IMG/VR virus record: IMGVR_UViG_3300032223_002232
Location: 64,001-128,000 of that record
Source: a virus
DNA length: 64,000 nucleotides
Reading direction: 5' to 3' (one strand)
Positions 1,710 through 64,000 of this stretch are shown piece by piece. Position numbers and translations under genes: made by a program. The notes beneath the pieces were generated by a model. It was not told where the DNA came from. It saw only the letters and a program-made list of their open reading frames with translations, and made no database searches. Within the stretch, counting starts at the first letter, position 1. Every line of letters starts with the position of its first letter.

Positions 1710-2216
1710 TTAAATTAAGATTTGTCCTCCTAACTGTGCTATAATACTTAGAGTGTTTTGAGTTTTTAGCTCTAAAAAGCTATATATTACTTGTATACTA
1801 TATTGATTAAGATCTGGTTGAGGTGTCACTCTAATGTTTAAAACATCTACTCTAGGTTCATATGTAGAAATTGCATTTAAAATTTCATTACCTATGATTT
1901 TAGCCAAACTATCAGTTACAGGTTCGAAAAGATATTTTTCCAAAGAAGAACCAAAATCTGGTGTTAATAGTTTTTGTCCCGGTCTTGTTGAAAAGATGTT
2001 TCTTATTGAATTTTTAATTGCATCATGATCAGTATTGACTATTATATCATTTGATTTGGCAACATTTAAACCTAAACCGACACTATTAGTTGGTGTTAAA
2101 TCTAAATTTAAATCTGTATAGACTGATGTTGCTTTTTGAACAACAACTGATGGCGAATTTTTTAGGTAATTCGATTGTTTCGGTCTTATTAAATTATTTA
2201 AATCTATGGTTGCCAC
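1710..2216 (-). CDS. gp25: baseplate wedge subunit (gp25/GPW family)
   Basis: AIKNSIRNIFSTRPGQKLLTPDFGSSLEKYLFEP...YEPRV motif; probable GTG start at 2216, 8 nt after TAAGTA (ORF track start 2291). Confidence 0.9.
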   Translation of the reverse strand: MATIDLNNLIRPKQSNYLKNSPSVVVQKATSVYTDLNLDLTPTNSVGLGLNVAKSNDIIVNTDHDAIKNSIRNIFSTRPGQKLLTPDFGSSLEKYLFEPVTDSLAKIIGNEILNAISTYEPRVDVLNIRVTPQPDLNQYSIQVIYSFLELKTQNTLSIIAQLGGQILI

Positions 2217-2276
2217 GGTATAAATACTTATAAATGTAGCTAATTCTTTTATGAATTTGTAACATACTGAAGTAAG

Positions 2277-2284
2277 TATAAATA
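2277..2284 (+). promoter_or_regulatory. T4-type late promoter TATAAATA
   Basis: Exact T4 late consensus ending 5 nt before ATG 2290; gp55 is encoded in the window. Confidence 0.65.
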
Positions 2285-2289
2285 ATACC

Positions 2290-2820
2290 ATGTCAAAGTT
2301 TAATAAATACGAAACATTATTAGAAACAGCCTTTTCACACTATTCAAATGGTGGGTTCAGGGAAGGTACACCTGTAAGAGTTAATAAAGCATTTTTATCT
2401 AGTCCTTATTTTCAAAAACACTATAGCGGCGATGCTAGTTTCGTTGCATGGTTAACTGATTTAGTTGAAAGAGAATACTTCTTCTTTATTAAAAGAGTTG
2501 TTGGTCATGGATCTTTACAAAACGTAAAGGATGCCAATGATAATGAAGGTGCTGGTGATTGTTTCTTGGTTTTAAAGACTGATCCAAGAACAGTTTCCAC
2601 TCCTACTGAATTATCCGAATTTACAGTACCCGGAGATTGGGCTTATGTACAAGTTGTACCAACTGGTGTGGGATTACCACCATTACAAGGCGTTCCTAAT
2701 AACTACGAACAGCCAATTGGTACAAAGCCACAAGAAGCTCCAGATTATTTTGGTATAAACAATCAGCCTACTGATAAGAATTTACCAAAAGTTAACGTTA
2801 CAATTAACGTTAAGAAATAA
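2290..2820 (+). CDS. hypothetical late protein
   Basis: 176 aa ORF after late promoter; N-terminus MSKFNKYETLLE. Confidence 0.7.
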   Translation: MSKFNKYETLLETAFSHYSNGGFREGTPVRVNKAFLSSPYFQKHYSGDASFVAWLTDLVEREYFFFIKRVVGHGSLQNVKDANDNEGAGDCFLVLKTDPRTVSTPTELSEFTVPGDWAYVQVVPTGVGLPPLQGVPNNYEQPIGTKPQEAPDYFGINNQPTDKNLPKVNVTINVKK

Positions 2821-3730
2821 TCTTCGATAAACCTATAAGACAACAGAAGAAATTGATCTCGTGATCAAGTACTAGGTTATCCCTGTACATATGCTCACCT
2901 AATTCTATCATCATAGCCTTCTTTTTATCTTCACTATAACTGGATTCGTATACCATGTTAAATATCTCTCTCATAAGAGACTGATAATCTGCATTAAAAT
3001 TTCTTTCTTCTTCAATAACAATCTTTCTTATATCAAGAACTGGTTTTTTAGAAATATCATTGAATATACTCTCTGCTATATTCTTAACCCTGTTTGAATC
3101 AGTTATAATAAGCTCACCAGTGATGCAAAATCTTTGAAGGTCATTAATAATTCTCCTCATATCAGGAAAATTATTTTTAATATAACTTATTAAGCGTCTA
3201 TTGTCATTAACTTCAATGTTTTCACACTTTAATATGTGTAAACACCTAAAAATAGAATCATCAAGCTTTGGTGTAATGTTAAAAAGCAAACATCTTGAAC
3301 AAATTGGTTCAATGATCTTGTTTATATAGTTTGCAGTAAGAATAAACCTGTTTGTATCAGCATATTCTTCCATTACATTACGCAAAATCCTTTGTGCTTC
3401 TGGTGTAGTGCCACAAAACTCATCTAAAATGATTACTTTCTTCTTACCATCAATTGATCTAGTCTGTGAAAACGAAATAACCTTGTTTCTTATCGTATCA
3501 ACACCATTTTCATCGGAAGCATTGATGTAAAGATACTGACATTTAAGAATATCTTTTACAATTATCTTAGCAAGTGTAGTTTTACCTGTACCAGCATTAC
3601 CATAAAGTAAAAGATGTGGCGTATCTTCATTGATTTTAGAAAAGAAATCTTTATTGTCTTCAGATAAGACAATTTCATCCAACGATTTGGGTGCATATTT
3701 CTGAACCCATAACTGATCATACAAACTCAT
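2810..3730 (-). CDS. gp44: clamp loader large subunit (RFC-like AAA+)
   Basis: LWVQKYAP, Walker A GNAGTGKT, INASDENG, ILDE, SRC motif. Confidence 0.95.
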   Translation of the reverse strand: MSLYDQLWVQKYAPKSLDEIVLSEDNKDFFSKINEDTPHLLLYGNAGTGKTTLAKIIVKDILKCQYLYINASDENGVDTIRNKVISFSQTRSIDGKKKVIILDEFCGTTPEAQRILRNVMEEYADTNRFILTANYINKIIEPICSRCLLFNITPKLDDSIFRCLHILKCENIEVNDNRRLISYIKNNFPDMRRIINDLQRFCITGELIITDSNRVKNIAESIFNDISKKPVLDIRKIVIEEERNFNADYQSLMREIFNMVYESSYSEDKKKAMMIELGEHMYRDNLVLDHEINFFCCLIGLSKIIS

Positions 3731-3736
3731 GCCTAT

Positions 3737-3765
3737 ATAATAGGCTATGAGAGGGTCATTGTCAA
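3737..3765 (-). promoter_or_regulatory. sigma70-type promoter for gp44 (leaderless)
   Basis: TTGACA-17nt-TATTAT, ATG 6 nt downstream. Confidence 0.8.
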
Positions 3766-3938
3766 CCGTTAATCAATGATCTACCATCAGCTTGTGGGTT
3801 ACTCGTAAGAACTTCTCTTACCTGCTGATGATTATTTGTTTGTGTTGATCTATATGCCTCTAGTAAAGATACAATATGTTGTACTTTATCATTTGGAATT
3901 GTATAGCTTACACCATTTACTGTGATTGTTGTTGTCAT
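3762..3938 (-). CDS. small hypothetical protein (58 aa)
   Basis: Hand-translated MTTTITVNGVSYTIPNDKVQHIVSLLEAY...; fills the gap; TAAATA 6 nt upstream. Confidence 0.65.
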   Translation of the reverse strand: MTTTITVNGVSYTIPNDKVQHIVSLLEAYRSTQTNNHQQVREVLTSNPQADGRSLING

Positions 3939-3952
3939 TTGATATATTTATG

Positions 3953-4171
3953 TTATTTTCTTCTTTTATCAACCATTTTATCAAAAATCAATGATAAAGC
4001 AAAAAAAGTAGGAGACCATAAACCCACGAAAAGAGCCACATGTTCTTGGTGAAGTTTGTTTAAATCTAAAGGTACTGGATTAAACCAAAAAAATATAGAT
4101 GCTGTAATTGAAAAAAACCCAAAAAAGAAACATGCTTCTCTTAAAAATTTATAAATATTATCTTGTCTCAT
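3953..4171 (-). CDS. small membrane protein
   Basis: 72 aa, two hydrophobic segments. Confidence 0.65.
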   Translation of the reverse strand: MRQDNIYKFLREACFFFGFFSITASIFFWFNPVPLDLNKLHQEHVALFVGLWSPTFFALSLIFDKMVDKRRK

Positions 4172-4182
4172 ATGATATAATA

Positions 4183-4196
4183 GTAAGTATACTTAC
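4183..4196. promoter_or_regulatory. palindromic bidirectional late-promoter candidate GTAAGTATACTTAC
   Basis: Perfect 14-bp palindrome with TAAGTA on both strands, between divergent genes. Confidence 0.5.
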
Positions 4197-4676
4197 ATGA
4201 ACAATACTAATGATATAGATTCAATTATTCAAGAATTAAAAGCTGATGAAGCTCCAATGCCAGTTAATATCGAACCAACAACTAATAGCAATGTCAATGA
4301 TGAGAATGTAGGAGAATACGTTTATAAAAAATCATCAGAGCTTGTAGAATCTACATTAGGTGCTGTTCAAGCTTTAAAAGATACCGTTTTAACTGGTAGT
4401 GATCCAAAAGAAATTGCAGCTTTATCACAGTTAATTAACTCCGCAACAAAGGCTCTTGATCAATTAAATAAAATTAATATTCAAAATAAAGTTAGTAAAT
4501 CAAATGTTGAAATTAAAAAAATGGAAATTGAAGCCAATGTTAATCGTCCAATGCTTCCAAATACAACAAATGTTTTAATTGCTACTCGTGATGAAGTAAT
4601 GAAGCAATTATTTGATAAACCTTCAAAGAAAGGTAGTGGTTTAGATTTAATTGAAGGTGAATTTACTACTGAATAG
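4197..4676 (+). CDS. gp16: terminase small subunit (gp16-like)
   Basis: Helical core (SDPKEIAALSQLINSA) and C-terminal TTNVLIATRDEVMKQL resembling the gp16 C-terminus; size fits. Confidence 0.65.
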   Translation: MNNTNDIDSIIQELKADEAPMPVNIEPTTNSNVNDENVGEYVYKKSSELVESTLGAVQALKDTVLTGSDPKEIAALSQLINSATKALDQLNKINIQNKVSKSNVEIKKMEIEANVNRPMLPNTTNVLIATRDEVMKQLFDKPSKKGSGLDLIEGEFTTE

Positions 4677-4804
4677 ATAATTTCATCTATTCATATTATT
4701 TATAATTGTTTTATTATAAACAATTTATAGGGTATTTTATCTATTCACCCTTTACAATTCCTATACATTTATCAATAATTGCAGAGGTTTTGTAATGTAT
4801 GTAT

Positions 4805-4845
4805 AAAAAAAGAAACCCACCCCCTTGCGAGGATGGGTTCTTTTT
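4805..4845. terminator. intrinsic terminator after gp23, probably bidirectional
   Basis: A-run, GC-rich stem (aacccacccc/ggatgggtt), T-run. Confidence 0.8.
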
Positions 4846-4864
4846 GATTGCGTGTCGTTGTCTC

Positions 4865-6346
4865 TTAGAGATAGCTGACGTAACCGTTTGCGCCGCCTTG
4901 GAAACCTTGTAGGCCAAGACCCTTAACTATAATAACGTGATAGTATAAGTTTGCACCAAAGATGTGATCAACAACGCCATAACGTGTCATAAGACCTACT
5001 CTTGGAGCAAAGTCATTAGGACCGATTGTGCGCTGAATCATCACAGGGATGTATGGGCAATATACGATACCAGTATCATAGTATTCAGATCCTTTGTAGC
5101 CTAAAAGGGCATATTCAAGTGCGTTTGCAGGGTTATTTACATCACCTCTGTCTCCGTTAAGATATTGGGCATCGGTACGAGTGTCACGATAAACTTGGAA
5201 ACGACCACCGAGTGTTCCAACTTTGGCAATGCCAGTTGGCTGGGTGTTGATGTTTCCGTTTACGGGCATCCACTGGTACTCAGGGAGCATCTCAAGGATT
5301 GCGCAAACACGAGGAGTAGCGATAATAAAATTAGCACTACCTCTGCGGTTACGAATTGCGATGCGGTTAGCTTCAACAATTACCTTTGAGTAGAAATCCC
5401 TGTTACGCTCACCTAACCAACGTGCGTCGGCTGATGCTGCGTACCAGTATGTGAATCCGGGGCCTTTACCTGCTGTAAGACAGACTTGGATCATACGGAT
5501 AACCATTTCACGGTCGATTTCGGACTGAATTTCATACGACATTGCGTTTGTTAATTCAGAATCGATATCTAAACCATTCATGTTCTTGAGATCTTGCTCA
5601 AGTTCAACTGACCAACGAGCGGCGAGACGGCGTGTGCCTGCCTCAACTGCTGTCTTGCTGAACTCAACAACAACCTGTGGGATGTTACCTGTTAATTCGA
5701 ACTGGTTAAGAAGAGCAGCAACACCTTGGTCTGCACCAAGAATGCTGAAGTCATCACCATTACCACTCAATTGAGCGGATGATGTACCAGTGAATCGTGT
5801 ATCCAAATACTGATAGCCAAGTTCCTTGCCGTCTGATGTCTGACGATTGTAGACTGTGCCATTTCCACCTGTGTAAGTAGATTGACCGCTGCCTGAACCA
5901 CCATTGATATCAAGACCATTGGAACCAAGACTATCTGCCTCATAGCGATAACGAAGAGCAAATGCGAGTCCTACTGGACCACTCATTGGCTGTACACCGA
6001 CGATCTCGTTTGTGATCAACTCAGGGAATGTACGGCGAACCATTGGGATAAGAATCTTAGGTAAACGTGAGTCACCTGTAGCATAAGTATCACCACTGAA
6101 GCCAGAACCGGGGGAAACCGGGCCTGTGCCGCCGAAAACACCAGAAACACCTGCTTGGTTCTGAGTTTCAGTTAAGCACCAGCGTTCTTGGTTTTCCATG
6201 AGAATCGCAGTTGATAATCTTTGGTGCTCGTTTTCGATTGCTGCAACCTTATCGGATGTGTAATCAAGAACTGGAGCCCACTTTTCAACTAACTGCTGTG
6301 CACGAGAACGATCAATGTAGCCAGCTGCTGGGTTTACATTTTTCAT
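4865..6346 (-). CDS. gp23: major capsid protein
   Basis: LVEKWAPVLD, GVQPMSGPVGLAFALR, WSVELEQDLK, EIDRE, YCPYIP, PRVGLMTRYG. Confidence 0.98.
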   Translation of the reverse strand: MKNVNPAAGYIDRSRAQQLVEKWAPVLDYTSDKVAAIENEHQRLSTAILMENQERWCLTETQNQAGVSGVFGGTGPVSPGSGFSGDTYATGDSRLPKILIPMVRRTFPELITNEIVGVQPMSGPVGLAFALRYRYEADSLGSNGLDINGGSGSGQSTYTGGNGTVYNRQTSDGKELGYQYLDTRFTGTSSAQLSGNGDDFSILGADQGVAALLNQFELTGNIPQVVVEFSKTAVEAGTRRLAARWSVELEQDLKNMNGLDIDSELTNAMSYEIQSEIDREMVIRMIQVCLTAGKGPGFTYWYAASADARWLGERNRDFYSKVIVEANRIAIRNRRGSANFIIATPRVCAILEMLPEYQWMPVNGNINTQPTGIAKVGTLGGRFQVYRDTRTDAQYLNGDRGDVNNPANALEYALLGYKGSEYYDTGIVYCPYIPVMIQRTIGPNDFAPRVGLMTRYGVVDHIFGANLYYHVIIVKGLGLQGFQGGANGYVSYL

Positions 6347-6356
6347 TTGTTTTTGT

Positions 6357-6362
6357 CCTCCT
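6357..6362 (-). promoter_or_regulatory. Shine-Dalgarno AGGAGG of gp23
   Basis: AGGAGG 10 nt upstream of ATG 6346. Confidence 0.75.
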
Positions 6363-6400
6363 ATGGATAGAATACAGAATTAAGAGTTAAGTAATAAAAA

Positions 6401-7294
6401 TTACTTTCTCTTTAATTCATTCAGATATCCGCTGACAGAATCATTTGATTCGTCAGATGCGCTTGTGGATTCAACAACAACTTCTCTTGTAGGAATCTTT
6501 GCACCAAAGCTTTGGGCTTTGGATGTAGCTTCACTAACAAGTTCGGTTGCAGTTTCTTCCTCACTGCGCTCAAACATCTCAACAACGTAGTTAAAATTCT
6601 CTTGAATATAAGAACTGTCTTTGTCGTTCAATAATTTAAAGATAAAATCTTTTTTAACAGAAGGCATACCAACTGTCTTCTCTTCTAAAACTGATTTAGC
6701 TTCAATGGACTTAATTTTTCCTAAAAGAGTTTCATTCTCTTTATAGGATTCATTAAGCTTTTCATTGAGTTCATCAATTTTTTCTTTGCCTTCTGAAATT
6801 GTACCCTTGATTGAATCATTTACATGATCAGGGTCGATACCAACTAAGCCACGGATCTTATCAAGTTGCTTACGAGCATATGTATTAGATACTGCTTCAT
6901 TTAATTGGTCTTGTGGAATTAATTTTTCTAAAGTGATATCAAGGAAGTTACTAACTTGATCAATCATTTTATTTGAAAAGTCATCTGCCTTTTCGTTAAG
7001 AGCATTACGGAAATAAGCAGTAAGTTTTTCTAATTTTTCTGTGTGGTCTAAATTGATAGCCTCAACAACTTTTTCAAGTTTGCCTGTATGATCTGTATCA
7101 ATTGCCTCTAAAAGCTTTTGAAGTTTTTCTGCATGGTCTTCATCAATTTTTGATGTTGCATTTTCAACTTCAAGTTTGATTCTTGAATCGACTTTTTCGT
7201 TAACAGCAACTTCAAATGCTTCTGCAATTGCTGATGCTGTTTCTTCTGAAAGAATATCTTTGTCGATTTTTTCTAAGAGTGCTTTTATATTCAT
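6401..7294 (-). CDS. gp22: prohead core scaffold protein
   Basis: Acidic coiled coil (AEAFEVAVNEKV) between gp21 and gp23. Confidence 0.85.
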   Translation of the reverse strand: MNIKALLEKIDKDILSEETASAIAEAFEVAVNEKVDSRIKLEVENATSKIDEDHAEKLQKLLEAIDTDHTGKLEKVVEAINLDHTEKLEKLTAYFRNALNEKADDFSNKMIDQVSNFLDITLEKLIPQDQLNEAVSNTYARKQLDKIRGLVGIDPDHVNDSIKGTISEGKEKIDELNEKLNESYKENETLLGKIKSIEAKSVLEEKTVGMPSVKKDFIFKLLNDKDSSYIQENFNYVVEMFERSEEETATELVSEATSKAQSFGAKIPTREVVVESTSASDESNDSVSGYLNELKRK

Positions 7295-7321
7295 AAAATG
7301 TTGTATAATAACTTATCCTTT

Positions 7322-7600
7322 TTATTTCCCTTTTTTAGAAGTTTTTTTTGAACCCTTCTTTTTTGCAATCATTTCCATGAAACGCTTTTTGTTTTCTTCT
7401 TTGGAAAGCTTGCCTTTCTTTTCATCCTTTTTAGCAAAAGGATTTTTCTTTTCGGATTCTTCTTCAACTTTTTTTGCGGTCTTTGCTACACGAGCTTTAA
7501 CTTTCTCCTCAACGACCTTTTTTAAATCATCATTTGCTTGAGCATAATTCTGCTCAACAAGACTTGTTATAAATTTTGATATTAGTTTACGAATTTCCAT
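7322..7600 (-). CDS. small Lys-rich prohead core protein candidate
   Basis: 92 aa, very basic C-terminus, in the head module. Confidence 0.6.
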   Translation of the reverse strand: MEIRKLISKFITSLVEQNYAQANDDLKKVVEEKVKARVAKTAKKVEEESEKKNPFAKKDEKKGKLSKEENKKRFMEMIAKKKGSKKTSKKGK

Positions 7601-7618
7601 AATAGTACTTATCCTTAA

Positions 7619-8287
7619 TTATGCATTTTTCAATAAATTGATAAATCCAATAATACATTCTTTAAGATATTGGTCTTTATTATTTCTTGGAAGTTTGGAA
7701 ATTTGATTTTCAAGCTTTTCGTAAAATGGTTCGAATTTTCCATCATCAGCAAGAACCCATTGTTTGGATTCAAGGATACCATTAACAAATGCTGTTGGTA
7801 CTGATGGGTCTGCAACAACGTCAATTGCGACAAGACGGAAGTCAGTTACTTTGTTGTAACCTTTTTCATTTTCAACTCTTCCGAGTGCACGAGAAGAAAC
7901 TCCGAGCTTAACGCCATCAAGCATTAATGAACGAACAACTTGTCCCATTGGTGTTGAAAGTACTTTTGATTTGCCCATGAAAATATCACCATCTTGTTTT
8001 AATTCGGTAACAATGTGACATGCTCTTTCTAAATTAACATCTGGTGATGTTGGGTGATTGAGTTCACCTGTTGCTCTTTTATTAACAATCATTTCTGATG
8101 AATAACGATTAACTTCTTCAATCATTTGATCTAATGGATAAACTCTGTTATTTCTATTTGGTTTATTCGCCATTAAAAATGGTCCGTAAAAACTCATATT
8201 AGATGGGGCGTTTCTGTTTTTCTCTTCAACCAAATAGCTCAATTCATAACTTGGTGTTTCTACTAATAGATTATAGGCATTACTCAT
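7619..8287 (-). CDS. gp21: prohead protease
   Basis: NRNNRVYP, GELNHP, LGVSSRALG, DVVADPS. Confidence 0.97.
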   Translation of the reverse strand: MSNAYNLLVETPSYELSYLVEEKNRNAPSNMSFYGPFLMANKPNRNNRVYPLDQMIEEVNRYSSEMIVNKRATGELNHPTSPDVNLERACHIVTELKQDGDIFMGKSKVLSTPMGQVVRSLMLDGVKLGVSSRALGRVENEKGYNKVTDFRLVAIDVVADPSVPTAFVNGILESKQWVLADDGKFEPFYEKLENQISKLPRNNKDQYLKECIIGFINLLKNA

Positions 8288-8315
8288 ATGTTATTATTAC
8301 TTATACCATACTTAT

Positions 8316-8774
8316 TCAATTTAAATGGTTTTCATTTAAAATAATAAATGTGTATCCTTTTTTTGAGCACCAAGCTCTAGCTGCTTCCCATTTTGCTTGG
8401 TTTACAGCCCATTGATATTTTTCATATATTAGCGTTTTTTGTTTTTTTCTTGGTGATTCAACTGGTGGTCTTGTTTGTCTCTCAGGTTTAACTTCAATTA
8501 ATAATTTTTTAATTGTACCATCCTTTGATTGAAGTTTTGCAACTAGATCTACAAAGTATCTATGTATTTTTCCATCAGCTGGTGACTCGTATGGTACAAC
8601 AACTGATTCTGAACTCCAACTTAATACATTAGGATTGTTATCTAAATAACGAAAAGCCTTAAGTTCCATCATCGATCTATATACTGGTGTTGAACCAATA
8701 TATTTTTTAGGATTTTTAGGTTTATAAATACCTTGAGTAAAATTTCTATTTTTCTTTCCTAAATTTTTATTCAT
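8316..8774 (-). CDS. gp4: head completion nuclease
   Basis: YKPKNPKKYIG, YRSMME, WSSE, HRYFVD, IEVKP, VNQAKWEAA. Confidence 0.92.
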   Translation of the reverse strand: MNKNLGKKNRNFTQGIYKPKNPKKYIGSTPVYRSMMELKAFRYLDNNPNVLSWSSESVVVPYESPADGKIHRYFVDLVAKLQSKDGTIKKLLIEVKPERQTRPPVESPRKKQKTLIYEKYQWAVNQAKWEAARAWCSKKGYTFIILNENHLN

Positions 8775-9649
8775 TAGCCAAGGAAAAAGTTTGTTGGTGA
8801 ACGATCAATAAGATCAGTTGTAATTTCTTTTTCCAATTCATCCTTTTCTTTCTCACCCTGTCTTAATACATCAGCACCATTTACTGTTTGACCACCAAAT
8901 AAACTAGTACCTTGAAATTTATTTCTAATATGACCTACTGCTATTTTTGTTAATGCAAGAGTATAACGATAAACCCATAATTGTGTTACTAAAAATCTAA
9001 TAGGTTTTTGCATTTTACATCCAACAAGACCAAAATATATATTATTCTGTGGTGGTTCTGGAATAATCTTTAATATTTGTGTATCGGGATTAAATCTCAT
9101 ATATGGCATTTGACCAAGAATTTTTTCTCTGGTTTTTAACCAATCTTTCATCACATGGAATGTTATTAAATCAAATCCAACATTACCAAGTAAGTGACCA
9201 AAGTATGCTTGTTGTGCAATTGTATTTTCAATTGTAAAAAGAGTGTTAACACCTGAATTATTACCTTGTTCAAATGAGAATACATCAATAACTTTTCTAT
9301 AATCACCCAAATCAACATCATAACCACCACTTAATGCTGATAAACTTGTACTATCTGCATTAACGGAATTATACATATCTGGTGTGACATTTATTAATCT
9401 ACCAATTGGTAAACCTACATTTTTAATATAAAGATCCGATCTAAAAATTAGATATTCTTCTTCTTCACCTGCAAATTTTGTAAAATATTCAATAGCAATA
9501 TCAATGAACTCATATATTTGTTCACTACTAATTTCAATTTCAATTAGTGGTGCGCCTAATGTTCTTTTTACTCTTTGTGCAAGAGCATCATAGGTGCTTA
9601 CCTTTGAATTGAAAGTTGTGCTACCGTGATATGTGGGGACTATACTCAT
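8774..9649 (-). CDS. gp13: neck protein
   Basis: RTLGAPLIEIEIS, KFQGTSLFGGQTVNG, C-terminal FFLG. Confidence 0.88.
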   Translation of the reverse strand: MSIVPTYHGSTTFNSKVSTYDALAQRVKRTLGAPLIEIEISSEQIYEFIDIAIEYFTKFAGEEEEYLIFRSDLYIKNVGLPIGRLINVTPDMYNSVNADSTSLSALSGGYDVDLGDYRKVIDVFSFEQGNNSGVNTLFTIENTIAQQAYFGHLLGNVGFDLITFHVMKDWLKTREKILGQMPYMRFNPDTQILKIIPEPPQNNIYFGLVGCKMQKPIRFLVTQLWVYRYTLALTKIAVGHIRNKFQGTSLFGGQTVNGADVLRQGEKEKDELEKEITTDLIDRSPTNFFLG

Positions 9650-9664
9650 TATATTAATATTTAG

Positions 9665-12577: not shown

Positions 12578-12639
12578 TACTTTTAATATTTAGTAGCTTA
12601 ATTTGATTTATCTGCTATAACTTATAAATTATACAATAT

Positions 12640-14754: not shown

Positions 14755-14770
14755 ATTTTTATATTTACCC

Positions 14771-16375: not shown

Positions 16376-16381
16376 GATATA

Positions 16382-16882: not shown

Positions 16883-16885
16883 ATA

Positions 16886-49503: not shown

Positions 49504-49532
49504 ATTGTTAAACAATTTTTCTAAATTTACAT

Positions 49533-50834: not shown

Positions 50835-50865
50835 TTAGTACACCATATTGGTACATAATTGGGTA

Positions 50866-53939: not shown

Positions 53940-53993
53940 TATTTTTTAAATTAATACTTGATATTACATTAAATTCTGTTAAATTTATATAGT

Positions 53994-54386
53994 ATGACAA
54001 CTGAAAACACAACAAAAACCCTCGTAGTAATCTTAGACACCATTGGTAGGACTGTACTCGGTGAGGCAGTAGATTCCCCAAAAGGAAACTTCTCCATCAA
54101 GAACCCTGTCATCCTTCATATTGTTCCAGCAGACAATAATGGAAAGATGTCAGTCCAACTTCTTCCTCTCTTTTTCAGAGAGTTCTTAGCAGACAAATCT
54201 GGTGATGTCACATTTACATATGATGCATCTCGTGTAACCAAGACTGATATCGACGCTCTTGATTTCCGTCTCCAAGCACAATATGCTCAGATGTTCAATC
54301 CACAGAATAGCTTTGTTGCTGATCCATCACAGGCAGCACCAGCAAGTGATTCTGTAGTTAAGCTTTTTGACGAGGAAGCAAAGTAA
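53994..54386 (+). CDS. conserved T4-like small beta-barrel (Sm-like) protein
   Basis: GRTVLGE..IKNPVIL..QYAQMF pattern; own promoter and terminator. Confidence 0.6.
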   Translation: MTTENTTKTLVVILDTIGRTVLGEAVDSPKGNFSIKNPVILHIVPADNNGKMSVQLLPLFFREFLADKSGDVTFTYDASRVTKTDIDALDFRLQAQYAQMFNPQNSFVADPSQAAPASDSVVKLFDEEAK

Positions 54387-54414
54387 AAAGTACAGATCGG
54401 AACTGTATTCATTA

Positions 54415-54458
54415 AGAAACCCCAGAGGGCTTGACTCTCTGGGGTTTTCTGTTATTAT
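54415..54458 (+). terminator. intrinsic terminator fused with the uvsX promoter
   Basis: aaaccccagaggg-cttga-ctctctggggttt stem-loop; TTGACT at the loop, TGnTATTAT downstream. Confidence 0.8.
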
Positions 54459-54465
54459 ATTATAT

Positions 54466-55569: not shown

Positions 55570-55576
55570 TAATAAT

Positions 55577-55831
55577 ATGATAACAACAAAAGAAATAATA
55601 AGTGGAACAGAAGAAGAATTACTTGCACATTTCAAGAAAAAGTATAATTTAGTTGAATCTACAAGTAATACATTACCAGCATTATCAACAATATTACCTG
55701 ATAATGGTATAAAAGCTGAATTACCAACCGTTACTACTCCGCAACCAGCAGTTCAACCTGCTGTAGTTGGTAATAAAGTTACAAAAGGATTTTCTGGACT
55801 GTTTGATGGTACAAGTTGGGGTAACAAATGA
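55577..55831 (+). CDS. hypothetical protein (84 aa)
   Basis: MITTKEIISG..., start after the uvsX stop codons. Confidence 0.6.
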   Translation: MITTKEIISGTEEELLAHFKKKYNLVESTSNTLPALSTILPDNGIKAELPTVTTPQPAVQPAVVGNKVTKGFSGLFDGTSWGNK

Positions 55832-55835
55832 TTAT

Positions 55836-55868
55836 TAGATTGCATTCTCATAGGATGCAGTCTATAAT
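55836..55868 (+). promoter_or_regulatory. sigma70-type promoter for gp41 fused to a 13-bp hairpin
   Basis: TTGCAT-17-TATAAT, ATG 6 nt downstream; TAGATTGCATTCT/AGGATGCAGTCTA. Confidence 0.75.
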
Positions 55869-55874
55869 TTTTAT

Positions 55875-57269
55875 ATGGTAGATAAAACTTTGCACCTAGA
55901 CTTTGATTATTTTGAGAAAATCATTATATTCAATGCTCTAATGGATCAACTGTATCTTGAAACGATATTGGAACATACAAATCCAATGTTTTTTCGTGAT
56001 AAGAACATTCAAACAGTATTTAAAGTCCTAAAAGACTTTTATATTGAGAATAAAATTGTTCCAAACATAACAGAGCTTAAAGCACATCTTAATGATGAGC
56101 AAAAAACAGCTTTAAAGGAAGTTTTTATTGGTTTCAATAATATTGATAAGAATTATAATAAAGAACTACTTATAAAAAATACAGAAAGGTTCCTCAGAGA
56201 GAAATCTGTGTTATTAACTGTTGTAGATACATCAATTGATGTTAATTCTGGTAAGATTGATAGTCAAAAGATCCTTAAAACCTTTGAAAAGGCTTGCGGT
56301 ATATCATTAACTGATAATATTGGGTTAGATTACCTTGAAGATATTGATAAACATTGTGCGGATCTTAGTGAAGTATTCAAAACCATATCAACTGGATGGA
56401 AATGGTTGGATAACCATCTTGGTGGTGGCTTTATGGCTGAAGGAAGAGCATTATATGTATTCTTTGGACAAACAAATGTAGGTAAATCAATCTTTCTTGG
56501 TAACATAGCAACTAATATTCTTAATCAAGATAAGACCGTGGTACTAATTTCACTTGAAATGCCCGAACAAGTATATGCAAAACGTATTTCAGCACAACTT
56601 TCTCGCATTCCAATCAATGATTTGAAGCTTCAAGTTGATCCTTTGCGTAATTTTGTTAATCAATACAAGATTAGGAATAGTAAATCAAAGTTAATTATTA
56701 AAGAGTTTCCACCAAAGGGTGTTAGTGTTCTTAATATTAAGAGCTATATTAACAAATTGATAAGCAAAGGCATTAAACCAGATACAATTATCATTGATTA
56801 TATCAACTTGATTGCTCCAGCCGTTGCAAATCAGGGTTCATATGAGTCAATTAAGGGCATTACTGAAGGTATTAGAGCATTATCTTATGAATTTAGCTGT
56901 CCTGTGATATCCGCAACACAAGCAAATAGGGCTGCTGTTAATGAACCACAACCAGACATGGGTAAAACCAGCGAATCTCTTGGTCTTTCAATGACAGTTG
57001 ATGCTCAATTCTCAATTTGGACTCAAGAAGGTGATTCTGATCTCGGAATTATTCATATGGGTATCGTAAAGAATCGTTTTGGTGGAAGAGAGGTTTATAC
57101 TCATCTTAATATTGATTATGAGACCCTTTCGCTTACTGAACCAAGTGATGTTGTAGCTGAATTCTCAGTAAAGGGTAATGTACCCAAGCTTTCAGCTGAT
57201 ATTGAAGCAACTACAATGGAATCAAGTATACTTGATACATTGAATATGATTGATAACATTGCATCATAA
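55875..57269 (+). CDS. gp41: replicative DnaB-like helicase
   Basis: GQTNVGKS, ISLEM, IIKEFP, IIDYINL, SATQANR, KNRFG. Confidence 0.95.
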   Translation: MVDKTLHLDFDYFEKIIIFNALMDQLYLETILEHTNPMFFRDKNIQTVFKVLKDFYIENKIVPNITELKAHLNDEQKTALKEVFIGFNNIDKNYNKELLIKNTERFLREKSVLLTVVDTSIDVNSGKIDSQKILKTFEKACGISLTDNIGLDYLEDIDKHCADLSEVFKTISTGWKWLDNHLGGGFMAEGRALYVFFGQTNVGKSIFLGNIATNILNQDKTVVLISLEMPEQVYAKRISAQLSRIPINDLKLQVDPLRNFVNQYKIRNSKSKLIIKEFPPKGVSVLNIKSYINKLISKGIKPDTIIIDYINLIAPAVANQGSYESIKGITEGIRALSYEFSCPVISATQANRAAVNEPQPDMGKTSESLGLSMTVDAQFSIWTQEGDSDLGIIHMGIVKNRFGGREVYTHLNIDYETLSLTEPSDVVAEFSVKGNVPKLSADIEATTMESSILDTLNMIDNIAS

Positions 57270-58189
57270 TGAATATTCAACAAATCGCTCATCATTTGAC
57301 TTCAAATAAGTCATTTCAAGTCTTTACACATAAAGATTTGGATGGTGCTGTTAGTTTTCTTACATTATTGTGGTCAAACCCTACAGCAACTATTACATAT
57401 CGTGAAATTACCAACATGCAAATGGGTGTTATGGATGAATATGTCAAAAAAACATGTAATCCACCATCAATTGTTGTTATGGATATGTCTTTAAGGAAAC
57501 AATTTATTGAAATGCTTGATTATGATTATGTTTATTTTATAGATCATCATAAAGGATCTGAAAATTATGTAAAATCGTTCAAACAAGCTAATATTGTATA
57601 CAAAGAAACTACATCTAATGCATTATTAACAAGAAAGCTGTTAAAAGAATTCTCGCCAGACTTAACAGATGCTCAAAAAAAGTTAATTCTTCTTGCTGAT
57701 GATTTTGATTCTAATAAACTTCAACATAAAGAGTCTTATGATTTAAATATTTTATTCTGGACTCAATTTAAAAATGATTTTTGTTATTTTATTAATTATT
57801 ATAAAGATGGATTTAAGCCTTTTAGTGAAAAACAAAAAGAAATCATCACTCATGCTAAACAAGATGCAAAAGAATTGTTTAAAAATACAAAATGTTTTAC
57901 TGGTGAGATGATAATTGAAGGATTTCCTCAAAAAGTAATTGCAGCTACAACAGATACATATAATAATATTGTAATTGATATGTTAATGAGTAAATATCAG
58001 CCAGATATACTCCTGTATATTAATACAAAAAGTGAAAAGGTTAGTATGAGGCAAAAAGAAAGACCAAACCCAATTAATCTTTCGGCTTTTGCTGAAAAAT
58101 ATTGCGATGGTAGTGGTCATATGAACGCTGCTGGCGGTAGAATCACGCTTCTTTTCATGGAGTTAACTAAAAAACTACAACCTCTATGA
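57269..58189 (+). CDS. DHH/DHHA1 phosphoesterase
   Basis: THKDLDG, IDHH, GSGHMNAAGG. Confidence 0.85.
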   Translation: MNIQQIAHHLTSNKSFQVFTHKDLDGAVSFLTLLWSNPTATITYREITNMQMGVMDEYVKKTCNPPSIVVMDMSLRKQFIEMLDYDYVYFIDHHKGSENYVKSFKQANIVYKETTSNALLTRKLLKEFSPDLTDAQKKLILLADDFDSNKLQHKESYDLNILFWTQFKNDFCYFINYYKDGFKPFSEKQKEIITHAKQDAKELFKNTKCFTGEMIIEGFPQKVIAATTDTYNNIVIDMLMSKYQPDILLYINTKSEKVSMRQKERPNPINLSAFAEKYCDGSGHMNAAGGRITLLFMELTKKLQPL

Positions 58190-58479
58190 TTATTACATCC
58201 TCACAGCAATTAGAAGACGTTTCAAACCCATCAAATGCTTTAAATATTGAAGAATTTGAGCAAATTACAATGAAATTTGGTGCTTTTGTTTGTATTTGCA
58301 AAGGTAAAAAAATGAATTACCTTAATTTTCTTAAATTTTTAGTTGATGATAAGCGTACACAAAAAATTTATTTTACACTTTTAGGTGAATTTGATTTACA
58401 AAGCATAATAAAAGCGTATCTTGGTTCTACGCCAAATGTCTATAAGAAGATATTTCGTTCAAAAAATAAAACCAAATAA
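58186..58479 (+). CDS. hypothetical protein
   Basis: 97 aa ORF, start/stop overlaps on both sides. Confidence 0.7.
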   Translation: MIITSSQQLEDVSNPSNALNIEEFEQITMKFGAFVCICKGKKMNYLNFLKFLVDDKRTQKIYFTLLGEFDLQSIIKAYLGSTPNVYKKIFRSKNKTK

Positions 58480-59129
58480 TGAACATTACCAATTTTGAGA
58501 AAAGAATTTATAATTGTTATCTCAAAAATTTTAGAAAAGGTCAGCCATACAAAGCAAGACAAGATTTTTCTAATTTAGAAGCAAATGTTGCCGCATATTT
58601 GCAGAAAATTTCTTATTTCTTAAGCAAATATAATCATATTGATTGTGAAGAATACTTTGATGCATTTAATTCGTTGCATCCAGATGATAAATACCCACCA
58701 TTGAATTACTTTTTCTCAAGAGCAGCTTTAAAAACTTATTCTTTATATAAAAAGCAACAAGAAGATCGTAATCCCGAAAAGCAATTTGATAAAATTAAAG
58801 ATGGATTAAGGTTTATTGGTATATATTGCATCAATAACAATATACCATTGAACAAATATTTATATTTTAAAGTGGGATATAGTTATGCTTGGCTAAATCA
58901 CTATAGAGAACATCGGATAAACCCATATTGTTTATTTGAATTGGGTGACATCTTTGGTATTCTAAGTGAAATTCCAAAGGATGAACTATATCTTTTTGCA
59001 ACAAACTTGTATGAAAACCTTATAGCCTTTAAAGATAGGTATGAAAAATCTAAAAACACCAAAGAATTTGTCAAAACAGTTACACAAAAAGTAAAATTTT
59101 TTGTTGAAAAAGAGTTGACGAAACATTAA
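58479..59129 (+). CDS. hypothetical protein (gp59 helicase-loader position and size)
   Basis: 216 aa, basic/aromatic, immediately upstream of gp32 as T4 gp59 is; no motif confirmed. Confidence 0.5.
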   Translation: MNITNFEKRIYNCYLKNFRKGQPYKARQDFSNLEANVAAYLQKISYFLSKYNHIDCEEYFDAFNSLHPDDKYPPLNYFFSRAALKTYSLYKKQQEDRNPEKQFDKIKDGLRFIGIYCINNNIPLNKYLYFKVGYSYAWLNHYREHRINPYCLFELGDIFGILSEIPKDELYLFATNLYENLIAFKDRYEKSKNTKEFVKTVTQKVKFFVEKELTKH

Positions 59130-59152
59130 AACATGATAATATTATTAGCATT

Positions 59153-60016
59153 ATGAGTACAAAATACAACGCAAGTCTCTTTGAATCACTTCAAGAGATC
59201 ATTAACAACAAGAGTGCAAACTACGAGTCTGGTTTTAAGGATTTCCTTAAACTTGAGACAGACAAGACGTATGTTGTTCGTCTTATTCCCAATGTTGAGG
59301 ATATTTCCAAGACTTGGTATCACTATGCCCAGCACATTTGGGATAGTGTAGTCACAGGCAAGAAGGTTTCTACCCTTTGCCCTAACACCTACAAGGAGAA
59401 GTGTCCTATCTGTGAGTATCGTTCTAAGATCTGGGCTACAAAGAATCAAGATCTCATTGATGGTATCAATCCTACTAGGAAGAACAAGAGATGGCTCTAC
59501 AATGTCTTTGTTATCAAAGATCCCACTAACCCTGAGAATGAGGGTAAGATCAAGCTTCTTAATGCTGGTGAACAGCTTGAGAAGGTTATTGAGGAAGCTC
59601 GTAGTGGTGAGTTTAAGGATGAGTTTGGTTATAAGATCTTTGATCTTTCCGCTAATGGGTGCAACCTTAACATTAAGGTTGAGAAAAACAAGGGTGGTTA
59701 TCCAACATATGTAAGCTCACGCTTCACATCACCATCAAAGATTGACGCTCTTTCTACTGATGCCGCAATTGACGAGATTCATGCAAATATCAAGCCACTT
59801 GATACGATCTTCAAGGTTCGTACATACAACGAGGTCAAGGATCTTCTTGATGTTCACTTCTTGGGTAAGGATAAGTCAACCGTAACTGACGATAGTATTG
59901 ATGAGGTTAAAGTTGAGTCGGTTACTGACGATGATGATTTTAGTGTTGTAACAAACACATCAAGTACATTATCCGATCAAGAGAAGAGAATGAAGGAAAT
60001 TTTGGAGGATCTCTAA
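59153..60016 (+). CDS. gp32: single-stranded DNA-binding protein
   Basis: VRLIP, CPNTYKEKCPICE, VIKDPTNPENEGK, GCNL, acidic tail. Confidence 0.93.
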   Translation: MSTKYNASLFESLQEIINNKSANYESGFKDFLKLETDKTYVVRLIPNVEDISKTWYHYAQHIWDSVVTGKKVSTLCPNTYKEKCPICEYRSKIWATKNQDLIDGINPTRKNKRWLYNVFVIKDPTNPENEGKIKLLNAGEQLEKVIEEARSGEFKDEFGYKIFDLSANGCNLNIKVEKNKGGYPTYVSSRFTSPSKIDALSTDAAIDEIHANIKPLDTIFKVRTYNEVKDLLDVHFLGKDKSTVTDDSIDEVKVESVTDDDDFSVVTNTSSTLSDQEKRMKEILEDL

Positions 60017-60019
60017 AAG

Positions 60020-60544
60020 ATGAACGAGCGAGAGGAAGCATTTGAAGTTGCAAAACTTGCAGCTATGGTTGGTGGACAGATGAATTTAGTTGATCGAATG
60101 ACAACTGAAAGAATGTCAACCCCTGCTAATAAAATTAATATTCATGATTTTATTAATAAGGTAAAAAACCCAAATGCTTCCTTTCCTGTTTATGCTCCCC
60201 CAACTCCATCAGGATTTGCACCACCTGTTGATGAAAGAATGGTTCAATCAATGGTTCCAGATGCAGTTCCAACATACATACCACCATCAGAACAAGGTGC
60301 TGTTCAACCTCCAACTATACCAGAAACTAAACCACCAGCGGAATCTGTTAACCTTCCTCATATTGTAAAACCATCATCAACACCAATGCCACAGCTAGAT
60401 CCAATTGTTGATGGACCATTTAAACCTGTTTTAACTCGTAGTGATGTTGATAGTATTAGGAATTCGTTAAAAAATATTGACAAGACACTTGCTGGTATGC
60501 TAAAGTTCTTACAAGAAAGTGGCAAACCAAAAGCAAATGAATGA
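60020..60544 (+). CDS. Pro-rich hypothetical protein
   Basis: 174 aa ORF. Confidence 0.7.
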   Translation: MNEREEAFEVAKLAAMVGGQMNLVDRMTTERMSTPANKINIHDFINKVKNPNASFPVYAPPTPSGFAPPVDERMVQSMVPDAVPTYIPPSEQGAVQPPTIPETKPPAESVNLPHIVKPSSTPMPQLDPIVDGPFKPVLTRSDVDSIRNSLKNIDKTLAGMLKFLQESGKPKANE

Positions 60545-61292
60545 CTCCTTAATCCCAATTCCAAAAACTTCTTTGGAAAAATTATTAAAGCCTGTAAACA
60601 GGCTTACAGAATCTTGCGTAATTAGAATTGAATCTAAGAAGTTATTTACTATCTGTACATCAACAGACAATAGTGTTATTCTTTATGCTAAAACAGAACT
60701 TCCTATGGAAGTTGACCCTATAAAACTTAACTTAATTAATATTAAGAAGTTTATGACAGGTTTAGATTGCTTGGGTGATGATGGTGATTTTAAACTTTTA
60801 TATAATGATAACAACATTATATGTAAGTCTATTAACGAAGCAACTGGTGAAAATACACATTTTAAATATCATCTTGTTGATGATAATATTATTAAAGAAT
60901 CAACAGTTAATCAGGAAAGTATTGCTAAATTAAATTTTGATACAGTTTTTGAATTATCTTTAAGTAAGATTAAACAAATCATGTCTGCTTATTCTTTTAG
61001 TACAGACGTTAATAAGATTTATTTTTATACAAAAGATAATTCTGTATGTGCTGATATTGATGATAAAACCTTACAGAACATTGATAATGTTTCTTTGCAG
61101 GTATCTAACGAATTTCAAGGAGAACCCATTTTAACGCCATTGTCGCTTAAAATTGAGGTCTTTAAGAACTTGGCTACAAGCAAGAATCCTATTAAGGTAA
61201 AGATTAATAATCAATTTAAGGTATTTATTTTCCAAACACAGGAAGACCAAAACACTGAGTTAAAATATATAATTTCTGCACTTGTTAAATAA
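60537..61292 (+). CDS. gp45: sliding clamp (gp45/PCNA fold)
   Basis: About 250 aa; LLKPVNRLTESCVIRI...TDNSVILY...LKYIISAL follows the clamp pattern; in the replication block. Confidence 0.7.
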   Translation: MNDSLIPIPKTSLEKLLKPVNRLTESCVIRIESKKLFTICTSTDNSVILYAKTELPMEVDPIKLNLINIKKFMTGLDCLGDDGDFKLLYNDNNIICKSINEATGENTHFKYHLVDDNIIKESTVNQESIAKLNFDTVFELSLSKIKQIMSAYSFSTDVNKIYFYTKDNSVCADIDDKTLQNIDNVSLQVSNEFQGEPILTPLSLKIEVFKNLATSKNPIKVKINNQFKVFIFQTQEDQNTELKYIISALVK

Positions 61293-61314
61293 CAAATAAG
61301 TGGTAAGATATTGT

Positions 61315-61653
61315 ATGTCAAAAAATAAATTAACTACTGTAGGGTATTTTATTAAGCGTCTCCGTGATTGTGGATATGTAACTGATAAAGTTTTTAATGA
61401 TTTTGCAACATCTGATGCCAGATCTTGGTGTGTTGTTGTAGATCCTAGAAATACTTCAGTATTTATTACTTGTTATAATAATCATAATTATTTAGGAGAA
61501 GAATACTTTGAATTACATGACGGAGGTCAATTTATCCCTTCTCGTTTTAAATTAAAAACTAGTTCAATTGAAACTGTTATCGAATACTTGGTTAAGTATA
61601 ACATAAACAACAAATCTTCTTCATATGGTAAGGAAAAAGAAATTAACCAGTAG
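61315..61653 (+). CDS. hypothetical protein
   Basis: MSKNKLTTVGYFIKRLRDCGY... Confidence 0.7.
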   Translation: MSKNKLTTVGYFIKRLRDCGYVTDKVFNDFATSDARSWCVVVDPRNTSVFITCYNNHNYLGEEYFELHDGGQFIPSRFKLKTSSIETVIEYLVKYNINNKSSSYGKEKEINQ

Positions 61654-62020
61654 TAACCCATCTCTTTCCTCCCAAAATTTAACTAAAGAAGAAAAATCTT
61701 CTTCAGTTATGGATGAAAAACAGATAGAAGATTTGCAGAAAAAAGTATTTGCAGCTATTAACAATCTAGAGCTTCAAAAAAGTTTAGATAGATGGTTAAA
61801 AGAAAATGAAAGTAATACTGCTGTATCTAGAAGAGATTTTAATTTATTAAAAAATAGCATATCCGAATATATGGATTGCTATTTATTATTTGGATATAAT
61901 ATTAATGGTGATAGAGTAATTATTCAAAAATTTAATAAACCAAGAGACCGTGATGCTATCATGGAATTCTTAAAAACAATATTTTTAAAACAACAACACG
62001 AGAATTTTTTAGATGAGTAA
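61625..62020 (+). CDS. hypothetical protein
   Basis: 131 aa ORF. Confidence 0.7.
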   Translation: MVRKKKLTSSNPSLSSQNLTKEEKSSSVMDEKQIEDLQKKVFAAINNLELQKSLDRWLKENESNTAVSRRDFNLLKNSISEYMDCYLLFGYNINGDRVIIQKFNKPRDRDAIMEFLKTIFLKQQHENFLDE

Positions 62021-63026
62021 TATAGACGAAGACATTTATTGTAGTAAACAGCCATTCGATTCGACATTGTTTCCAATCGGTTCTGCGAATTTTATGGCTA
62101 GAAATAAAAATATATTGCCATTCCTTTGTAATCTATTGCAGTATGCTAATGATGAAACCGTTAGTCCAGTTATAGTAGAAGCTCCAGAATTCGATATAAC
62201 GCCTTTTACAGACTTTACAGGATTAACTGCCGTTGGTGATCCAAGAGTTTCTTTAGGTGAAACTATGTCAGCCACATTTATAAATTTCTTACCAAGAATG
62301 ATTGCACAGACTGAAGTTATGCAATCTGGTGGAACTCAAGTTATTGAAAATATTATTTGTAATGCTGATGGTATACCTATTAAAGAATCAAGAACAATTC
62401 CAGTATTATTATCTTTAGATTTAACTGGTCAAAAACCATATCAATATGGTGCATTAACAATTCCACCATTATCAGCAACAATTGAAGATTTAATGAAACC
62501 AATTAATCCTACTGAAGTTACGGATTATGTTAATAATTATGTATATTCTCTTAAAAAGGATCATATAACATATTTTAGTCAATTCTTACAAACATACTTT
62601 TTAAACAATGGTTGGGAAGCGTCATTAATTTCATATAATATGCCATCAGTATTTTTAGTTAAATTAGATAAAGATACACAAACAATTTATATAAAATATT
62701 ATACTGATGTTCAAAATGAAGTTGCTTGTACAATAGGTGCAACATCAATATTAACACATTTTGGAACATCAAATGTTGAAAATAGAGCAATGATTATTGC
62801 TATTGGTAATCAAATACCAGATTACAAATATTTAATTGAAAATCCAGATAAAGGTGAACAGTGGTATCAATATTTAATTGATAATACAATGGCATCTGTT
62901 GATCAAAACTTTTCTAATTTGTTTACAAATACTAATGCTGCAACAGCATATATTGCTAAGATGGATGCATTAAATGTACCAGTTGTAAGTGCAGTTGATG
63001 TAAATTGCAACATCAGCACATATTAA
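62013..63026 (+). CDS. hypothetical protein
   Basis: 337 aa ORF. Confidence 0.7.
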   Translation: MSNIDEDIYCSKQPFDSTLFPIGSANFMARNKNILPFLCNLLQYANDETVSPVIVEAPEFDITPFTDFTGLTAVGDPRVSLGETMSATFINFLPRMIAQTEVMQSGGTQVIENIICNADGIPIKESRTIPVLLSLDLTGQKPYQYGALTIPPLSATIEDLMKPINPTEVTDYVNNYVYSLKKDHITYFSQFLQTYFLNNGWEASLISYNMPSVFLVKLDKDTQTIYIKYYTDVQNEVACTIGATSILTHFGTSNVENRAMIIAIGNQIPDYKYLIENPDKGEQWYQYLIDNTMASVDQNFSNLFTNTNAATAYIAKMDALNVPVVSAVDVNCNISTY

Positions 63027-64000
63027 ACTGTGGTGCAACTTTAAGTGTTCCATCTGGATTAAATTCAGCATTTACTTGTACATAATTTGTACCATCATAA
63101 GGATCACCAGCAATACCATAATTAGAATTTCTATTAGCAGCTGCTTGTGATGGTGTTTTACTACCAAAAGCTCCACCACCGCCACCACAAGAAGATGTAT
63201 CACCTAAAGATTTAACACCCGGAGGTGTTCCCATACCATGAGGTTTAGCTGGTGTTGGTACATGACTAGGATTAGGTCTTGCGGCTCTTGATGCGGCAGC
63301 ATTATCATGTCCATCAAATGCAGGAACAGTTGTATCATGTGAATGATTACCACCCGGTGCATTATGATTATGATTATAATTATAAATTGGTATCATTGCA
63401 GGAATAACATATCCCTTCATAGCACCAGTTGGTCCTGCAACAATAACATCTAAAGGCATATATGTTGTGTAATTCATAACCCAACTATAACCAGTTGGTA
63501 AACCATAGTTATCAACTGGTGCAGCTAATGCTATACTTGAATAAGCTTCTTCAACTAATGTTTTAATTTCAGCAGGACTTATTATATTAAAAGTTAAAAA
63601 ATTATAAACATCTCTTGTAATTTTTTTTAAACTTTTATCAACTCTGTCATATATAGTTGCTTGTGGTTTGATTGGATTATTCCATGTAGCATTAGAATGA
63701 ACTTGGTGAGCAGGACCAGCAGGAGCAGATGGCAATCTTTCTGATGGTATTGTTAAATGTGTACAAAAAATCCCACCATCCATCATTAAAGAACCTTTAA
63801 GAGCCAAATCACCACTTACATTAAGTTTACCAGATACAATAGTATTATCAGATTCTATTCTAACACCAGTGTCACCAGAACGATCTTTTGCATCTATTAA
63901 AATGTTTTTACCTTTAATAAATGTTCTATTAGCTGATGTTAAAGTTAATTCACCTTGATTTGCAACAATTGTTGTTGTAGCAGCATTTAAAGTTACCTTT
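63013..64000 (-). CDS. C-terminal part of probable baseplate spike/gp5-VgrG-like protein; 5' end outside window
   Basis: Frame open to the window edge (KVTLNAATTTIVANQGELTLTSAN...), beta-helix-like strands then HNHN...HSH. Confidence 0.5.
   Translation of the reverse strand, partial: KVTLNAATTTIVANQGELTLTSANRTFIKGKNILIDAKDRSGDTGVRIESDNTIVSGKLNVSGDLALKGSLMMDGGIFCTHLTIPSERLPSAPAGPAHQVHSNATWNNPIKPQATIYDRVDKSLKKITRDVYNFLTFNIISPAEIKTLVEEAYSSIALAAPVDNYGLPTGYSWVMNYTTYMPLDVIVAGPTGAMKGYVIPAMIPIYNYNHNHNAPGGNHSHDTTVPAFDGHDNAAASRAARPNPSHVPTPAKPHGMGTPPGVKSLGDTSSCGGGGGAFGSKTPSQAAANRNSNYGIAGDPYDGTNYVQVNAEFNPDGTLKVAPQFNMC

Follow-up and report, generated by a model that had tools for sequence, protein, structure and literature searches.

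Why does a long stretch of phage DNA hold not a single copy of a five-base word that its composition predicts dozens of times, and what could have removed it? We addressed this question in a window of 64,000 nucleotides, corresponding to bases 64001 to 128000 of the 169,763-bp IMG/VR virus record IMGVR_UViG_3300032223_002232, a single linear metagenomic contig that has 30.9% G+C and is ~77% complete as judged by CheckV. The record is that of a T4-like phage, probably a virulent one, and the word is CCWGG, in the form of either CCAGG or CCTGG. A preliminary description of the window, made from its letters and open reading frames, had proposed that CCWGG is purged from this DNA by selection strong enough to override codon bias. 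Our counts bear this out, and we consider the purge to be very probably classical restriction-site avoidance: the DNA of this phage would lack chemical protection at the missing words.

CCWGG is absent and Pro-Gly pairs are recoded

Expected counts were taken from three null models, namely a first-order Markov model, a maximal-order Markov model, and 100 within-gene synonymous-codon shuffles. Neither CCAGG nor CCTGG occurs on either strand of the window, where 39 (first-order) to 43 (maximal-order) sites were expected. Likewise, the whole record contains no CCWGG site against 107 to 108 expected under the two Markov models. The codon shuffles gave an expectation of 68.6 ± 4.7 sites for the record, and the lowest of the 100 shuffles still held 53; the Poisson chance of finding none is ~1e-30. 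The four-base beginnings of the word are common, with 499 copies of CCAG and 263 of CCTG, and in none of these is the next base G.

The absence of CCWGG is mirrored in the choice of proline codons. Exactly 18 Pro-Gly pairs are found in the window up to base 64000, and all 18 are written CCC-GG or CCG-GG at the positions given in the preliminary description, whereas the proline codons that precede residues other than glycine are CCA (528), CCT (252), CCC (32), and CCG (23). On the plus strand, CCC-GG is used at 2629..2633 (gene 2290-2820), 40232..40236 (gene 40079-41122), 46353..46357 (gene 45699-46394), and 50562..50566 (gene 49533-50834). On the minus strand, single CCG-GG pairs lie at 1978..1982 (gene 1710-2291), 12312..12316 (gene 9665-12577), 21079..21083 (gene 21069-22550), and 23103..23107 (gene 22553-23293), and two more, at 63218 and 63353 (63218..63357), lie in a gene that starts from 63013 and extends beyond the window end. 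The minus-strand CCC-GG pairs comprise two in the major capsid gene 4865-6346, at 5457 and 6108 (5457..6112), three in gene 14771-16375, at 14946, 15177, and 15351 (14946..15355), one at 18063..18067 (gene 16886-19117), and two in gene 19166-21025, at 19878 and 19974 (19878..19978).

Genome-wide, Pro-Gly pairs use CCC or CCG (CCS) in 60 of 60 cases, while CCS makes up 6% of the proline codons elsewhere and CCA/CCT the other 94%. The remaining two reading frames are closed in the same manner: glutamine flanked by C and G is encoded by CAA in 39 of 39 cases, and none of 131 codons before TGG is of the form NCC. In addition, NCN codons before tryptophan (TGG) end in T in 62% of cases compared with 34% elsewhere, which goes far beyond what is needed to avoid NCC-TGG; part of this bias may reflect avoidance of CCATGG, as Pro-Trp can be written CCA-TGG.

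Depletion of CCWGG, the EcoRII site, is familiar from the coliphages T7 and T3, of which T7 keeps a few copies. The same word is avoided here by a probably virulent phage, but the count is zero in 170 kb and the codon switch at Pro-Gly pairs is complete.

Other words are erased together with CCWGG

CCWGG is the largest target among the erased words, and ~15 further words are erased besides it. Counted over the whole record as observed/expected under the synonymous-codon-shuffle null, these are YACGTR (0/43), CTGCAG (0/32), GGYRCC (1/26), YGGCCR (0/21), CCATGG (0/19), CGCG (0/18), RGCGCY (1/17), GRGCYC (1/14), GGATCC (0/9), and GAGCTC (0/8), together with the asymmetric words CTCGA (3/43), CAGCTC (1/37), CCAGTC (0/16), ACGGG (2/23), ACTGGG (2/17), and GGCGGA (1/12). 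In the window alone (1..64000), the erased words besides CCWGG likewise have few copies or none, and CGCG, GGTACC, and CTCGA/TCGAG all have a count of zero. The distribution of words is bimodal, and GATC (548/539), GGWCC, GANTC, CCWWGG, GCWGC, and the AT-rich palindromes are found at expectation. The erased words match Type II specificities, which we take to be those of EcoRII/BstNI, PstI, NcoI, BstUI, EaeI, BanI, BsaAI, HaeII, BamHI, and SacI. A greedy search for degenerate motifs gave artificial unions of words (e.g., RCSSGT) and was not used.

The avoidance had been described as specific to CCWGG, on the grounds that CCGG, CCSGG, GATC, and GGCC are present. Only the GATC part of that argument stands. 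GGCC occurs 28 times against 62 expected, and its longer form YGGCCR is among the words with no copy. As for CCGG, 62 of its 67 sites are inside CCSGG, and 60 of those are recoded Pro-Gly pairs, so that CCGG and CCSGG are by-products of the purge; outside CCSGG, CCGG is found 5 times against 48 expected. A Pro-Gly pair is always CCNGG, and therefore a phage under selection against CCWGG and CCGG alike has to leave one of them in place. The avoidance is thus not specific to CCWGG.

Relatives share the conflict at Pro-Gly and solve it differently

Uncultured relatives of this phage are numerous and include complete genomes of ~211 kb. Five of them were compared as whole or partial sequences, namely G001 (212 kb, complete), G002 (71 kb), G003 (23 kb), G004 (112 kb), and G005 (211 kb, 30.9% GC). 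CCWGG shows no depletion in G005 (159/151, observed/expected) or in G004 (109/107), and other words are at expectation in both. Because relatives of the same composition are not depleted, the purge is not a family-wide sequence habit. Six-base palindromes give the same picture: 27 of 64 are missing from the record, with a summed expectation of ~173, whereas G005, equal in GC content and comparable in size, lacks 1 of 64 and G004 lacks none. Moreover, all 15 Pro-Gly pairs conserved between orthologues of this genome and G005 are written CCS-GG in the former and CCW-GG in the latter, in agreement with selection overriding codon bias.

The other relatives are purged as well, with word sets that partly differ. 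The fragment G003 has no CCWGG (0/15) and the same word profile as this genome. G002 lacks CCWGG (0/19) and CTGCAG (0/11), with few others purged. In G001, CCWGG is at 64/93, while CTGCAG (0/47), CCATGG (0/24), GRGCYC (0/26), and CAGCTC (0/35) are absent and CAGCTG is nearly erased (6/40). CAGCTG is slightly over-represented in the present record (57/47), and CTCGA, erased here, is normal in G001 (113/129).

The difference is sharpest at Pro-Gly. While this genome and G003 retain CCSGG at these pairs, G001 has purged CCSGG (7/16) and most other CCGG too (24/94), and 58 of the 64 CCWGG sites that it keeps are at Pro-Gly. At conserved Pro-Gly positions, CCW is kept in 17 of 18 cases in G001 and in 10 of 10 in G004. 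Sister phages thus solve the CCNGG conflict in opposite ways. Loss at the protein level is not clearly elevated, the Pro-Gly pairs of G005 being retained at 16 of 48 positions in this genome, 19 of 58 in G001, and 12 of 26 in G004.

On a tree of capsid proteins from 49 loci, CCWGG is normal at 39 of the 49 and the purge is scattered: branches with good support require five or more changes; the purged phage L048, for example, is sister to the normal L010. The set of avoided words thus changes quickly and is not the same even among close relatives, which is what would be seen if each phage followed the restriction repertoire that it encounters. Two distant relatives with capsids 65-66% identical, L079 and L075, have independently lost CCWGG (0/14 and 0/5), and L079 (38% GC) has also lost CGCG, GGYRCC, and GGATCC.

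The purge is found where que genes are missing

A difference in gene content accompanies the difference in words. QueC is encoded by every non-avoiding relative of at least 80 kb (G004-G009), with E values of 1e-45 to 1e-60, and a glutamine amidotransferase and a DUF366 protein are found in the same six genomes. QueD is present in G005, G006, and G009 only, and FolE in G009 only. None of the first three (QueC, amidotransferase, DUF366) was found in this record, in the complete avoider G001, or in G002, and PF06508, PF01242, and PF01227 gave no match in the record. In G005, the QueC cluster comprises the glutamine amidotransferase, the DUF366 protein, a glycosyltransferase-like gene, and a P-loop kinase.

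The places that these genes occupy in G005 can be located in the window. At 25100..26424, where G005 has QueC between the orthologues, a Glyco_tranf_2_5-like gene (25100-25816, minus strand) directly abuts a divergent gene (25801-26424, plus strand). Similarly, at 24343..25103 on the minus strand, G005 carries both the amidotransferase and the DUF366 gene between the orthologues of 24343-24723 and 25100-25816, and only an open reading frame of 123 amino acids (24732-25103) is found here. The QueD (PTPS) gene of G005 lies between orthologues of the genes that flank 55569..55875 (plus strand), and the local 147-amino acid open reading frame 55388-55831 is unrelated to QueD. The genes that border the que genes in G005 are conserved in this genome and stand next to each other (24343-26424 and 55569-55875). 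It is therefore at their own loci that the que genes are lacking, and they do not merely lie in the unsequenced 23% of the genome.

To this comparison we added a set of 80 loci from many metagenomes, anchored on the conserved glycosyltransferase-like gene, of which 57 had enough flank to be judged. QueC is present in 13 of the 57, always with the amidotransferase and DUF366, and absent in 44. The summed CCWGG counts are 135/158 (0.85) where QueC is present and 83/409 (0.20) where it is absent, and the GC-rich six-base palindromes behave likewise, with ratios of 0.94 and 0.25, respectively. The association of que presence with the purge gives a Mann-Whitney p of ~2e-7, uncorrected for relatedness.

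Gene content, taken with the published cases of 7-deazaguanine in phage DNA, suggests that the DNA of the que-positive relatives is modified. Two genes of the relatives' que cluster are retained in this que-less genome, the glycosyltransferase-like gene 25100-25816 and the P-loop (AAA_28/dNK-like) kinase gene 27683-28366; as both are kept without que, they may have a function independent of deazaguanine synthesis. A gene of 276 amino acids (L100:17784-18614, equal to G005:57784-58614, minus strand) is found only in que-positive genomes, beside QueC and a primase-like gene. Searches for a protein family, for a relative of solved structure, and for a usable atlas match all came back empty, and the gene might supply the step that is otherwise missing, either DNA insertion or one at the nucleotide level.

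Modification and methylase genes of the phage

Six-frame family searches of the record, to be read with its ~77% completeness, found no C5 methylase (PF00145), Dam-type methylase (PF02086), or N4/N6 methylase (PF01555). The thymidylate-synthase family that includes deoxycytidine monophosphate (dCMP) hydroxymethylase (PF00303) is absent from the record and from G000-G005. A flavin-dependent thymidylate synthase, ThyX, is predicted by family match at 53433..53939 (plus strand) and indicates an ordinary supply of thymidine monophosphate. These results agree with the earlier argument that no blanket cytosine hypermodification protects the genome. Two methyltransferases in the glycosyltransferase island are of generic S-adenosylmethionine-dependent or sugar O-methyltransferase types. 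The avoider G001 has a 38-bit match of the N6_N4 DNA-methylase type (G001:24907-25311, minus strand) in a frame with two TAA stops, possibly a decayed methylase gene.

Origin of the purge

Of the causes considered, restriction by the host is the best. The phage would package DNA without chemical protection at the erased words, and infection would succeed less often with each copy of a word that restriction enzymes of the host population cut. Selection would then remove the words almost wholly through synonymous choices, that is, CCS-GG, CAA between C and G, and no NCC before TGG, with host Type II restriction enzymes as the probable selecting agent. The que-carrying relatives may be relieved of this pressure because guanine in their DNA is replaced or modified, and the present lineage appears to have lost the que pathway rather than never to have had it.

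Such a division has precedents. It is chiefly non-temperate dsDNA phages that avoid sites, and the sites are for the most part orthodox Type II ones; among T4-like coliphages, 55.8% of host sites are avoided by those without the hydroxymethylcytosine (hmC) enzyme and 2.4% by those with it (PMC6286503). The family studied here is alike in that only its modification-less members avoid sites, while it differs from the T4-like coliphages with and without dCMP hydroxymethylase in that the trade-off involves genes for 7-deazaguanine (QueC/QueD/amidotransferase) and not hmC, the relatives' modification being deduced from genes. Replacement of G by 7-deazaguanine, which can be complete (100%), guards phage DNA against restriction, and the T4-like Campylobacter phage CP220 has 100% ADG (Hutinet et al. 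2019, PMC6884629; 2023, PMC10516641). As in those phages, the non-avoiding relatives carry QueC, QueD, and an amidotransferase adjoining replication genes, whereas the present genome is without all que genes at the syntenic sites. Compared with the palindrome avoidance surveyed by Rusinov et al. in 2018 (PMC6286503), the complete or near-complete loss of short, mostly palindromic Type II-like words in a probably virulent phage, brought about by synonymous codons, is the same, and the breadth is unusual, with ~15 word classes, 27 of 64 palindromes absent, and the asymmetric CTCGA, CAGCTC, CCAGTC, and ACGGG included.

Several points weigh against this account. Sites or genes could sit in the missing part of the record, though the que loci are syntenically empty. 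Asymmetric words are purged too, and these were rare in the 2018 survey (PMC6286503). As for the association with que genes, their presence changes only ~3 times on the anchor-gene tree, which leaves 2-3 independent contrasts, none in the wrong direction and too few for significance after correction for relatedness. Moreover, a DpdA-type DNA transglycosylase (PF01702) was not found in the que-positive relatives, whose que genes could instead serve tRNA queuosine.

The alternative that survives best holds that the words were removed to avoid marking: DNA without them gives Dcm-like and other host methylases nothing to methylate, and the phage would thereby be spared the methylation-dependent (Type IV) nucleases of the host that it enters next. 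Under Type II and Type IV pressure alike, the erased words would coincide with methylase specificities, so the sequence cannot separate the two, and a phage that has no methylase of its own in family searches fits the idea. However, avoidance has been tied mainly to orthodox Type II systems (PMC6286503), and Type IV enzymes usually need loosely defined methylated contexts, under which the erasure of ~15 exact words is less expected. We regard avoidance of marking as unlikely.

Less likely again, and in our view improbable, is that the phage itself wields a CCWGG-specific nuclease without a methylase, which would shred host or rival DNA while its own site-free genome is spared. The 23% of the genome that is unseen leaves room for such a nuclease. 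The preliminary description had raised a phage nuclease acting on CCWGG and pointed to the GIY-YIG gene at 36780..37220 (minus strand). This gene matches PF19835 with an E value of 2.1e-28 (99.5 bits against a cut-off of 25), so the family match makes it a predicted SegE-type homing endonuclease that is not tied to CCWGG. Nor were MvaI/BcnI-type (PF15515) or EcoRII-type (PF09019) nucleases found in the record or in the avoiders G001-G003, the PF09019 search having been run without a positive control. Finally, ~15 words are erased and the set varies from one sister phage to another, which a single nuclease cannot account for.

Mutational decay, in which host Dcm methylation followed by deamination of 5-methylcytosine turns CCWGG into CTWGG or CCWAG without selection, is in keeping with an excess of these products in avoiders (361/293 here and 520/427 in G001, compared with 367/365 in G005, which has no excess). 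The same excess, however, would be given by synonymous escape in the other two frames (NCT-TGG and C-CAA-G). The main route of loss is a W-to-S change at the third position of proline codons (15/15 orthologous sites), which deamination cannot yield; besides, mutation bias does not bring a word to exactly zero and leaves CTGCAG, CCATGG, and GGYRCC unexplained. Deamination is thus largely refuted as the sole cause, which we hold to be very improbable, and it may contribute. An artefact of assembly or of the null model, which the origin of the record in a single metagenomic contig might suggest, has next to no probability and is refuted, because three different nulls agree and give ratios near 1 in relatives and because the purge recurs in over 40 independent contigs drawn from many samples.

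Relationship to cultured phages and hosts

In a protein-level search, the major capsid protein matched cultured cyanophage-type capsids at only ~33% identity, and the capsid gene gave zero megablast matches to GenBank phages; therefore, neither a cultured relative nor a host can be derived from capsid matches. T4-like capsid genes of this phage family also occur on contigs binned to bacterial metagenome-assembled genomes (L115, L116, L120, and L122). The labels of these bins come from unrelated groups, including Bacteriovoracaceae, Terrimicrobiaceae, Polynucleobacter, Pseudobdellovibrionaceae, and Legionellales, and we rejected them as a clue to the host, reading them as phage contigs that were probably mis-binned into low-GC bins. 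The complete relative G001 has a predicted transfer-messenger RNA with the tag ADEEMLLAA (L084:5196-5653, equal to G001:65196-65653) and ~20 tRNA genes within a 40-kb stretch (L082-L085); no tRNA genes were found in the window.

Implications

The purge itself is textbook biology, of which this genome is a rather extreme case. What is added here is the split between que genes and purge within one family, the empty syntenic que sites, the opposite solutions at Pro-Gly, and the differing word sets of sister phages. A bolder proposal, which we put forward tentatively as a possibility, is that the lineage switched strategy: a 7-deazaguanine-protected ancestor would have lost its que cluster, possibly because a host defence acted on DNA of that kind, and would then have erased the targets of at least 15 restriction systems. 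The erased set, including CTCGA and CCCGT, would in that case be a negative print of the defence repertoire of the host bacterium, usable for host assignment and for finding new enzyme specificities. From the purge it can be predicted which relatives should have modified DNA, which enzymes should fail on the DNA of this phage, and which methylated motifs its host should carry, and the last of these may offer a route to host assignment for uncultured phages.

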